The notes below the pieces were generated by a model, which was not told the DNA's origin, did not search any database, and saw only the letters and a list, made by a program, of their open reading frames with translations. From positions 32,426,001 to 32,490,000 of the forward strand of contig NW_026889751.1 in NCBI RefSeq assembly GCF_033153115.1: DNA of 64,000 nucleotides, given 5' to 3'. Source of the stretch: Saccostrea echinata. Lineage: Eukaryota. The position numbers were made by a program, and so were the translations under genes. Of the stretch, positions 9,307 to 13,000 are shown in pieces (positions within the stretch are counted from its first letter, which is position 1; the number at the start of each line of letters is the position of its first letter).

Positions 9307-10072
9307 CTTTATTTTGACAGCATTTCTAAGATATTGAGATATGGACCCCCGTACCAGTGCCCAAAACGTGATGCGATGTGACCTGTGTGAGACGTCTGTG
9401 GTACAGATGCACTGTGATACATGCCATATCAACCTGTGCATAGCTTGTGTGGGAGTTCACTTTTCAACTGATCTCTCGAAACCTCATAAAATTGTTGATT
9501 TCAAGGCTAGGAAATCTACTTTGATTTACCTTAAATTCATGTCACATGATGTGGAAGCATGTGAAATGTACTGTTATCAATGTGACATTCTCGTCTGCAA
9601 CTCATGCATTGCATATGATCAACACCTAGGTCATAAATTTTTTAAAATTTTAGAAGTCTTGAGTAAAAGAAAAGAAAAGATTATCAAGGAAAGTACAGAA
9701 TTAAATGAAACAATCTATCCAACTTACCAGGGTATTGCCAGTGATGTAGAAAAGAGAATAAATCTTATACAAGAGGAATATAAAAAGCTTTCAACAGCCA
9801 TAACAAAACAAGGAGAAAATTGCAAAGAGAAATAAATGAACTTGTCAATAAACTTAAATCTAAAACTGATGAAATGAAAAACAAACAGTTAGAAACTCTG
9901 CAGAAACATTTTGGCGAAAGAAACCAGAAAATCTCTGACATCCAGGATGAAATAAATTCAGTCGATGTTGCTTTAAATTCTACAAATATTTCTGAAGTGT
10001 TCAGTATTTTAAGTACAGTGGATATACACTGGATATCCTGAAAATTACGGTAATTATTCTCTCAATACTTAT

Positions 10073-13000
10073 ATGTTTAGAACCATCTTCATTCTTTTGT
10101 GTGTGCGCTTAATACTGGAGTCATGGGTCATTTATTGTTGCTCGAATTTGTTCTACGAACATATTCAGCTCTTTCACCTTCTCGGAAATAGTTTGTTTTG
10201 GTGCAAAAACTACAAAACTCTACATTATCTCCACGGTAAATTTCTTTATCCCAAGCATCTATATGTAGCATTCATACTTAAACTATATCAGACTCCACAA
10301 AATGCGATGTGTGTATATATGTTAACACTTTTTGTTCTACAAAGTTTGCTTTTCATTTGCATTTATTTTTTGTTCCTTTTTTGTTTATTTTTGTTTGATT
10401 TCCATTCTACTTTGTTTCATTTTTCTCCATTTACTTTTGTTCCAGCCTGTTACTTGCTTACTTTATTTTATTCTATTACTATAGTCCAGGTACATGTAAT
10501 GTTAGTTAGAGATGTCAGTTCAAATGTATTATCATTGATTAGCAATCATTGCCAAAAATATGAACATTATCTTGTTTACTATTCAAAAAGAATCTTTAAT
10601 ATCACAAATCATCACTTTAATATCATTGTGATTACAATGTTACTATTGTGTGGATGTGTGGAAACAAACCCAGGTCCAACAGATTATAAAAAACACGTCA
10701 GTATTGTGCACAATAATGTGTGTAGTTTATTTCCAAAACTTGATATTATTAGAAATGATTTATCAGGAAATGATATAATTGCCATTACTGAAACTCATTT
10801 AGATCAGAGTATTGACAACAAAACAATTTCACTAGATGGTTATTATCAACCAGTTAGAAAAGACAGAAATAGATATGGTGGAGGAGTTGCATTATACATT
10901 TCAACTAGAGTAAATTTTATAGTAAGAAATGATTTAAATTTTTCTGATATTGAAATTTTGTGGGCAGAAATTCATTCACAAAATCAAAAGTTTCTAGTTG
11001 GAGTCATATACAGACCTCCTAACTCTGGGTCTGATTTTTGGGATAAACTTACAAGTACTGTAGAAAGAGCTATAGATACAGAGATGAAATTATTTTTGTT
11101 AGGTGATTTCAATGTAAACATGTTAGCCCCTGGGAACAATACATTTAAAAATCTACTCCTACAACTTAATTTAAGTAATGTTGTCCTAGAGCCTACCAAC
11201 TTCACAACGGATAATGGAACCTGTATAGACTTAGTGTTAACTAATGATCCTAACAAAGTTGAAAGTGTTACAGTTGATGAACCAATCTGTAGTTCTCACT
11301 CACCTGTCTCTATAGAAATTTCATTTCAAACATATAAACAACATGCCTTCAAACGTACAATTAGAAATTATAATAATGCAAATTATCAAGGCCTGAATGA
11401 TGACTTAAAAAATGTCAGTTGGGATGAAAAAGTGTTTACCTCCAATAATATGAATGAAGTCTATCAAAATTTTACATGCACTTACCTACAATTGGTAGAT
11501 AAACATATACCAACAAAGCAAATTACAATACGTCCATCAGATAAACCATATATTACCACAGAAATTCGTAGGAAAATGCGGCAAAGAAAAAGAATACGTA
11601 AAAAAGCAAAGCATACTAAGAATCCATTACACTGGCAAAAATTTAGACAAATACGTAATGAAGTAATAGACCTAGTACGGAATAGTAGGAAAGAATACAA
11701 AATCAAACTTGTTTCTCAACTTATTGACACATCTATTCCACCAGGAAAGTGGTGGCGTATAGCAAAATCTGTTGCAAGGTTAAAGAAACAAAATTCTCCC
11801 CCATCCTCTATTAAATCACAAGATGGTAGAATATTGGTTCACCCAATTGATAAAGCTGAAGAATTTAATAATTTTTTTTCAAATATATCACATATTGAAA
11901 ATGAGCCAGACTTGCCTGAACATGGAGCTGGACCTCCAGAATATTTCTGTGATTTTGAAATAAGTGATCAAGATGTGCTTGATCAGTTAAGCATACTTGA
12001 TCCCTCTAAACCATGTGGACCAGATGGGATTTCCCCCAGAATATTAAAGGAAACCCGTTATTCTATATATAAACCTTTATGTAGGTTATTTAACCTATCA
12101 CTTACAAATAAAGTTCTTCCATACATATGGAAACAAGCACATATTACACCTATTTTTAAAAATAAAGGCTGTCCCCAACAACCTAATAATTACAGACCAA
12201 TATCATTGACTTGTTCTATATGTAAGCTAATGGAAAAAATACTTTTTAAATATATGTTTAATTATATTAAGGAACATGACTTATTGTCTAAGTTCCAGTC
12301 TGGCTTCCAACCTGGGGATTCTACTGTTAACCAATTGGTTGAAATTTATGATAATATTATGTCAAACCTAGACAAAGGCAGAGATATACGCTTTATATTC
12401 TGTGACATTTCCAAAGCTTTTGATAAGGTGTGGCATAAGGGAATGATTTTTAAACTTAAAAACCTTGGTTTTAGAAGTAATATACTGGGTTGGATCGAAG
12501 ACTACCTTACTGAACGACAACAAAAAGTGAATTTGGAAGGTTTTTCATCAGCATATACAACTATAGATGCTGGGGTGCCTCAAGGGTCTGTACTTGGTCC
12601 CTTCCTGTTTTTGTTATACATAAATGATGTAACTAATGATATATCAAGTAATATTCGACTGTTTGCTGATGATACTTCTTTGTTTGCTATTATAGACAAT
12701 GATATTACTAATACAACAATGTCCCTTACTCAAGATCTTGAAAAAATTAGAAATTGGTCCAAGGCTTGGGCTGTTGATTTTAATAGTGAAAAAACTGTTA
12801 ATGTTGATTTTACAAGAAAACACTTAAGTTATCCTGGCATTCAATTTGGTTATGGAGGTGATTATATAAAACAATCAAAAACTCATGTTCATTTAGGGAT
12901 ACAATTTCAGGCAGATGGTTCTTGGAATAATCATATGTCTAATATATATGAAAAGGCATGTAAAAGATTGAATATACTTAGGTTATTGAAACATAGTATA

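Follow-up and report, generated by a model that had tools for sequence, protein, structure and literature searches.

A 201-codon leader ahead of a variant 2A-like motif in a Saccostrea echinata LINE: a candidate ribosome-relay frame fused to ORF2

We analysed a 64,000-nucleotide stretch of the Saccostrea echinata genome (contig NW_026889751.1, positions 32,426,001 to 32,490,000 of the forward strand; hereafter the window). The stretch carries a young copy of a long interspersed nuclear element (LINE) whose second open reading frame (ORF2) opens with a long, U-rich leader that ends in a variant 2A-like motif, directly before the APE endonuclease domain. The genome assembly is AT-rich and spans 923 Mb. 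The features considered here, in window coordinates, are as follows.

10017..10029, + strand: left target-site duplication, 13 bp, identical to 14148-14160
10030..14147, + strand: APE-type LINE copy, 5′-truncated and young, with a second copy 99.8% identical over 4051 nt
10030..10072, + strand: remnant of the spacer that lies 3′ of ORF1 in longer copies; L033 and L035 extend upstream into the ORF1 C-terminus
10073..10534, + strand: U-rich frame, amino acids (aa) 1-154, probable counterpart of the middle ORF of sister families; 3′ boundary approximate
10307..10399, + strand: most hydrophobic segment of the leader, aa 79-109, membrane-length in a hydropathy scan and not above the composition null
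10535..10675, + strand: short leader of ORF2 type that terminates in the 2A-like helix, marked by its ratio of nonsynonymous to synonymous differences (pN/pS)
10535..10542, + strand: TTG-AT-TAG, possible vestige of a stop/start overlap, read from the sequence 48 codons before the Pro
10652..10678, + strand: 2A-like core GCVETNPG/P, with Cys (10655-10657) at the Asp position
10733..11308, + strand: APE endonuclease domain (PF03372, E 8.8e-13; PF14529, E 5.7e-8)
12167..12841, + strand: reverse transcriptase (RT) domain (PF00078, E 1.1e-32)
13532..13669, + strand: C-terminal Cys/His motif (zf-RVT, E 0.11, below cut-off)
13838..14147, + strand: 3′ untranslated region (UTR), T 41.5%, AATAAA close to the end, no poly(A) tail
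14148..14160, + strand: right target-site duplication, identical to 10017-10029

The element has the hallmarks of an APE-type retrotransposon of the non-LTR kind (LTR, long terminal repeat): a target-site duplication, 5′ truncation, dispersed copies, and APE followed by RT in a single ORF (10013-13837, +; 1274 aa from stop to stop, with the Pfam APE match beginning at aa 241). From its domain order and motifs we take it to be CR1-type. The near-identical second copy has an intact frame, and thus the family moved recently. At 10030 the copy is truncated on its 5′ side, since L033 and L035, two longer copies of the family, run on upstream through the spacer into the end of ORF1. The ATG at 10073 recurs in L033, L035 and L036. 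The spacer between the ORF1 end and the leader measures 278 nt in L033.

A sequence-only reading of this DNA had proposed a hydrophobic leader of about 200 residues in a frame that is stop-free as far upstream as the 10030 junction, followed directly by APE. Frame translation and the Pfam matches bear this out: the first in-frame ATG, at 10073, gives exactly 201 residues up to the Gly of NPG/P. Nor is the leader open by chance, as shuffled versions held a mean of 12 stops and none was stop-free among 20,000 global and 20,000 local shuffles. Compared with L035, a dead copy whose leader is 78–82% identical, there are no stops in 180 codons and five of five indels are in frame; in the body of L035, 4 of 15 indels are multiples of three. 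Thus, the expectation that selection keeps the leader open held against the shuffles and against L035, but two decayed copies carry breaks: a stop and frameshifts in L036, and one +1 and one −1 shift in L034. Much of the leader is also covered, at ~85–92% identity and with no indel listed, by contigs from another organism. Of the four runs in this comparison, three touch the leader in short pieces only and one is RNA by a guessed label; a lone 39-nt joint seen in a DNA run lacks splice ends.

Constraint on the encoded residues was assessed with pN/pS, against a null that preserves substitution types. For aa 1-124 versus L035 the ratio was 0.64 with a null of 0.67 (P 0.48), while the absence of stops had P 0.044. 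A raw dN/dS of 0.56 had pointed to purifying selection on the 5′ leader, a candidate that we dropped given the substitution-preserving null of 0.67. The last part, aa 155-202, gave 0.23 with a null of 0.71 (P 0.004), the signal coming mostly from the 2A end; aa 155-183 alone was not significant (P 0.28). The leader is a reading frame kept open by selection, with most of its residues loosely held. It has no Pfam match, and a search of 5.8 billion proteins, covering proteins of near length only, returned no relatives of aa 1-202 or of one sister leader. Atlas searches gave one 0.75 lead without a family and one blank. Such empty protein searches prove neither novelty nor absence.

The leader ends LLLCGCVETNPG/P, the Gly of NPG lying at 10673-10675 and the Pro at 10676-10678. 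The class A features ExNPG/P, G at −8 and Leu at −10 to −12 are all present, and Cys occupies position −7 in place of Asp. The suggestion that this Cys is not a product of decay was supported, as it is fixed in every family copy that covers the site, and the contigs of the other organism list no difference over the GCVETNPG/P codons. We searched the genome at the protein level, scored 150 of 1004 candidates, and fetched 38 loci picked for frames of >1000 codons. A 2A-like motif is present in 37 of the 38, and in a quick tree confined to elements of this genome the fetched loci and the window form 17 families. Over the 37 loci the Asp position holds D in 24, G in 6, N in 5 and C in 2. Cys also occurs in two sister families, every non-D case falls within the clade of the window's family, and the E and NPG are invariant. 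This extends the variety of selected 2A cores known in nature to C, G and N for D.

Published work supports two background statements of the sequence-only reading, that 2A-like elements ahead of APE are a known LINE feature (PMC3708506) and that a rotavirus carries ECIESNPGP (PMC12338488), though that peptide is class B. The class B rotavirus ADRV-N peptide with Cys is active, with listed values of 0.46 and 0.26 (Rao et al. 2025, PMC12338488). Among eight CIE/CVE peptides in another screen, two have a Leu-rich helix and an intact ExNPGP; one of these gave skipping with reduced protein and the other fall-off with reduced protein (PMC13405545). The peptide of the window is not among the tested peptides of two published supplements. 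We regard partial skipping or fall-off at this motif as fairly likely.

We then compared the leader with the sister families, whose layout is ORF1, a spacer, a U-rich middle ORF, and an ORF2 made of a 49–89-aa leader, 2A, APE and RT. Of three sister ORF1s, one matched Baculo_FP_2nd at E 8e-4, short of the cut-off; a second matched a coiled-coil family and the third had no match. In most loci the middle ORF is ATG-initiated, spans about 80–190 codons in the −1 frame relative to ORF2, and begins 110–330 nt past ORF1, and the first Met lies close to the 5′ end of most of these frames. An automatic pass placed the stop of the middle ORF 5 or 8 nt past the ORF2 ATG in 21 of 37 loci. For closer comparison, 15 families were each represented by their best-preserved copy; the window's family and that of L079 were left out. 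The first −1 stop falls at +5 in 11 of these 15 representatives and at +8 in three, an overlap of the AUGnnUAA type. Upstream of it, these 14 have 65–193 open codons in that frame (local-shuffle P 0–0.011), against 0–40 in the other two frames. In the fifteenth, L104, the stop of an 80-codon frame directly abuts the ORF2 ATG, so that stop and AUG lie together in all 15, the abutting case included; the fused family of the window lacks this arrangement. As a control, 42 of 174 internal ATGs in the coding region had such a stop, and none combined it with at least 45 open codons.

The overlapping stop is kept under varied codons (ATG GGT AA, ATG ACT GA, ATG ATT AA, ATG ATT GA), and since it persists under different amino acids, the stop itself is what is kept. 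In all four family pairs compared, the middle ORFs gave a pN/pS at the null (P 0.33–0.82), and indels that change the frame are seen in their alignments. The ORF2 leaders of those four pairs, by contrast, are constrained (P at most 0.018). In the literature covered, which excludes Repbase reports and subscription journals, we met no report of CR1-type LINEs with a third or middle ORF; such a frame between ORF1 and ORF2 appears to be unreported.

Two further observations concern the ORF2 leaders of these families. Loci L086-L109 and the metagenome loci L125-L186 share a conserved leader start, MGN-x4-(Y/W/H)RAAIGxF, in leaders of 71–90 aa that are under purifying selection with almost no indels; the motif is absent from the window's clade. 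We considered MGN as a myristoylation signal and rejected it, since variants start MAG, MRG, MIG, MD or MA and yet the overlapping stop stays. The family of L104 and L107 has a 126-aa ORF2 leader, and the abutting stop of L104 represents a second coupling geometry.

Because its amino acids drift, the middle ORF most likely relays ribosomes by termination–reinitiation. After translating the middle ORF, ribosomes would stop over the ORF2 AUG, and a small share of them would start again there; what counts would then be the act of translation, and the peptide would matter little. In the window's family, a change of frame would have made the middle ORF continuous with the short ORF2 leader. A single initiation at 10073, or slightly upstream, would then read on into ORF2, and stalling or skipping at the 2A would both remove the long hydrophobic piece and ration the ORF2 protein (ORF2p). 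We therefore propose that a ribosome-relay ORF, fused to ORF2 and set free by the variant 2A, makes up the 201-codon leader, and put the probability of this reading at roughly 0.6. The window's family nests in a 14-row clade; the other three families resolved there all have the split layout, their leaders measuring 49–75 aa. The TTG-AT-TAG at 10535-10542 is no more than suggestive of a vestigial stop/start overlap, and its spacing fits sister leaders of 49–56 aa.

Several points weigh against this proposal. The automatic pass found the overlap in only those 21 of 37 loci, the remaining 16 mostly looking truncated or frameshifted; the representative copies were chosen post hoc, as was the ATG in one family; and the families are related and so do not count as independent events. 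The homology of leader and middle ORF is drawn from position, length and composition only, and a phmmer comparison among 14 sequences returned no match for the window's leader. The alignment register at 10535-10542 is ambiguous and L035 lacks the stop there, while the nearest family, that of L079, comprises four copies that are all truncated and whose frames disagree. The constraint on aa 1-63 versus L036 (pN/pS 0.31, null 0.56, P 0.012) is not what a pure relay would predict. With regard to the variant 2A, no Asp substitution in P2A or F2A reached an activity of 0.6 (bioRxiv 2026.09.24.754024). The middle AUG is never the first AUG past the ORF1 stop, in 12 of 12 split loci shown and in L033, and ribosomes bound for the middle ORF would face the short AUG frames in between. 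UGGGA, motif 1 of the termination upstream ribosome-binding site (TURBS), was found at none of 12 junctions in the 100 nt searched upstream.

Overlapping upstream ORFs generally repress the ORF that follows. The middle ORF might accordingly act as a repressor that overlaps the ORF2 AUG and diverts ribosomes, with ORF2 reached by leaky scanning or internal entry and the fused form relying on fall-off at the 2A. Leu-rich eukaryotic 2A-like peptides do often lower protein, in 59% of the ORF2p cases tested (bioRxiv 2026.06.17.732966). For repression any downstream stop would do, yet the stop is held at +5 or +8, and in a recently active family the in-frame fusion makes the same AUG the start of ORF2. 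Removal of spacer AUGs in the megabat L1 element also lowered retrotransposition (PMC4072516). We regard the repressor as quite unlikely.

The origin of the leader could instead be independent of the middle ORF, as a 5′ extension drawn from U-rich spacer DNA and tolerated because the 2A trims it, or as a spliced exon. The leader shows no detectable protein similarity to the middle ORFs and its composition equals that of the 3′ UTR. In L033 and L036 the frame also stays open, with no AUG, for a further ~45–50 codons upstream of ATG 10073, and in L033 this stretch contains an acceptor-like site. The same stretch is interrupted in L035, which also lacks the acceptor-like AG. Moreover, the place, length range and composition of the leader match the middle ORF in the split families of the clade, and in most middle frames the first Met lies near the 5′ end. 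Such an origin appears very improbable. In the same upstream region, a block of ~32 nt located 132–165 nt 5′ of the leader ATG is near-invariant in L033, L035 and L036, which are 74–78% alike elsewhere, and keeps the reading frame of the leader in each of them, at distances of 150, 165 and 132 nt. It includes TGTTTAC, which we take to be Forkhead-like. The block may be a promoter or RNA element, or may mark a non-AUG extension of the frame.

The sequence-only reading saw several membrane-length hydrophobic runs in the leader. A crude scan by hydropathy and insertion scale supports one clear segment (aa 79-109, Kyte–Doolittle 2.7) and leaves the other two, aa 4-22 and 127-145, marginal. Against stop-free shuffles of the same local composition, the leader is unremarkable in mean hydropathy (P 0.24) and in its best window (P 0.35), and its +1 frame holds an equally hydrophobic window. 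The T content of the leader is 37, 46 and 44% by codon position. Pooled over 14 frames against the local composition null, mean hydropathy had z 0.88, the best window 0.07 and second-position T −0.11, and neither residues nor topology are conserved from family to family. Peptides resembling transmembrane (TM) segments are a common product of T-rich DNA (PMC7005711). The idea of a specific, membrane-targeted leader protein that tethers the retrotransposition machinery is therefore not supported: its hydropathy is at the level of its composition, aa 1-124 are near-neutral, and the frames of the sister families shift freely.

A looser version is that the leader and middle ORF are membrane-targeting peptides in which only bulk hydrophobicity is selected. 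U-rich RNA would supply it in any frame, with docking at the endoplasmic reticulum (ER) and partial 2A skipping that tethers ORF2p. Besides the segment at aa 79-109, this version can draw on the higher T content of most middle ORFs (0.41–0.47) relative to the preceding spacer (0.30–0.38), on a best 19-residue window marginally above a whole-ORF shuffle (pooled z 1.98), and on the ability of 2A-like peptides to double as signal sequences (PMC4981915). It is compatible with a relay role, and in view of the constraint on aa 1-63 the leader may have a membrane role. However, the 200 nt past the ORF2 stop are equally T-rich (0.38–0.58), the measures pooled over 14 frames lie at the local null, nothing in residues or topology is shared between families, and the fixed position of the stop is left unexplained. 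We consider this version rather unlikely. Hydrophobic leaders ahead of LINE 2A motifs may thus be by-products of U-rich relay frames, and a composition control is needed before such leaders count as membrane proteins.

In a metagenome scan we examined the best 80 of 335 loci, several of them from one record series. The RAAIG-type leader motif was present in 19 of these 80, four of which had no nearby ATG. In the other 15 the stop lies at +5 in ten, +8 in one and +14 in four, with 40–151 open codons (P 0.0005–0.08). Three metagenome LINEs, L167, L180 and L201, have 374–459 open codons, partly hydrophobic, in frame before the 2A motif, and are possibly further, longer fused leaders. A scan of viral contigs for leader relatives gave one unrelated phage locus only (L124), which carries an RT and accessory ORFs resembling a diversity-generating retroelement. 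A bolder reading is that a broad set of invertebrate CR1-type LINEs has three cistrons, with a middle ORF that would both deliver ribosomes and, through a hydrophobicity present in any frame, dock ORF2 translation at the ER, and with the window's family as a switch from stop–restart to a 2A polyprotein; this we hold to be doubtful.

The LINE of the window is inserted in a B-box/NHL-repeat gene (9338-10029 and 14148-about 15130) that is frameshifted on both flanks. An intact B-box/NHL paralogue lies at 22108-23793, and ORFs of comparable size at 32507-34216 and 51472-53142. In two family copies the leader is split by insertions, of ~7.7 kb (L032/L033) and ~2.3 kb (L035), and the ORF1 remnant of the L032/L033 copy abuts the 3′ end of another LINE. 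Small contigs and the starts of contigs carry a repeat with a period of ~2.3 kb (L011-L030); its matches are confined to the T-rich stretch of the leader, and these DNA matches were set aside as low complexity.

Comparison with known systems places the element among the 2A-bearing APE-type LINEs (Odon et al. 2013, PMC3708506; Luke et al. 2013, PMC3894237), of which CR1-1_CGi and CR1-1_LG are active in molluscs. As in these, the 2A-like motif is N-terminal in ORF2, just before APE, with a Leu-rich helix, G at −8 and ExNPGP. In the described elements the 2A lies ~40–80 aa from the ORF2 start and most are said to lack ORF1 (Odon et al. 2013, PMC3708506). In contrast, the 2A of the window's element lies 201 aa in (49–126 aa in the sister families) with Cys for Asp, the ORF1 C-terminus lies upstream in L033 and L035, and many sister loci have an ORF1. 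The sister families also carry a third frame, which the accessible portions of PMC3708506 and PMC3894237 do not mention. The rotavirus ADRV-N 2A (PMC12338488) shares the Cys at the Asp position; it is class B with an upstream Trp, whereas the peptide of the window is class A-like.

The MDG1-group LTR elements have a small hydrophobic accessory ORF, the sORF2/FAST-like frame, in which a TM segment, a polybasic region and, in many cases, an N-myristoylation motif are shared from family to family (PMC11952523). The frames described here are likewise small and hydrophobic but have few basic residues (2–14 K/R) and no conserved ones, and so do not show the conserved TM segment, polybasic region and purifying selection of a FAST/sORF2-like fusogen. 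The megabat L1 has a long ORF1–ORF2 spacer in which AUGs aid retrotransposition (Yang et al. 2014, PMC4072516). It resembles the present elements in its spacer; it belongs to the L1 clade and lacks a 2A, and no long frame onto the ORF2 AUG is described in the accessible portion of that paper.

How LINE ORF2 is translated across spacers of hundreds of bases is an open question. Reinitiation across a long spacer has been judged highly improbable, and an internal ribosome entry site suggested (Luke et al. 2013, PMC3894237). If our proposal is true, a translated relay frame that ends on the ORF2 AUG would be a different and directly testable answer, for which one genome offers many natural variants and the fused family a natural control. 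Termination–reinitiation is known for SART1 (UAAUG), proposed for L1, and found in caliciviruses and influenza B (PMC5972666; PMC3894237). We did not find it in print combined with StopGo in one arrangement. As in those systems, the stop of a long upstream ORF overlaps or adjoins the downstream AUG. ORF1 itself plays the upstream part in SART1 and L1, whereas in the sister families the stop comes from a separate third ORF that is free in sequence and shows no UGGGA, and the window's own family differs in being fused, without the overlap.

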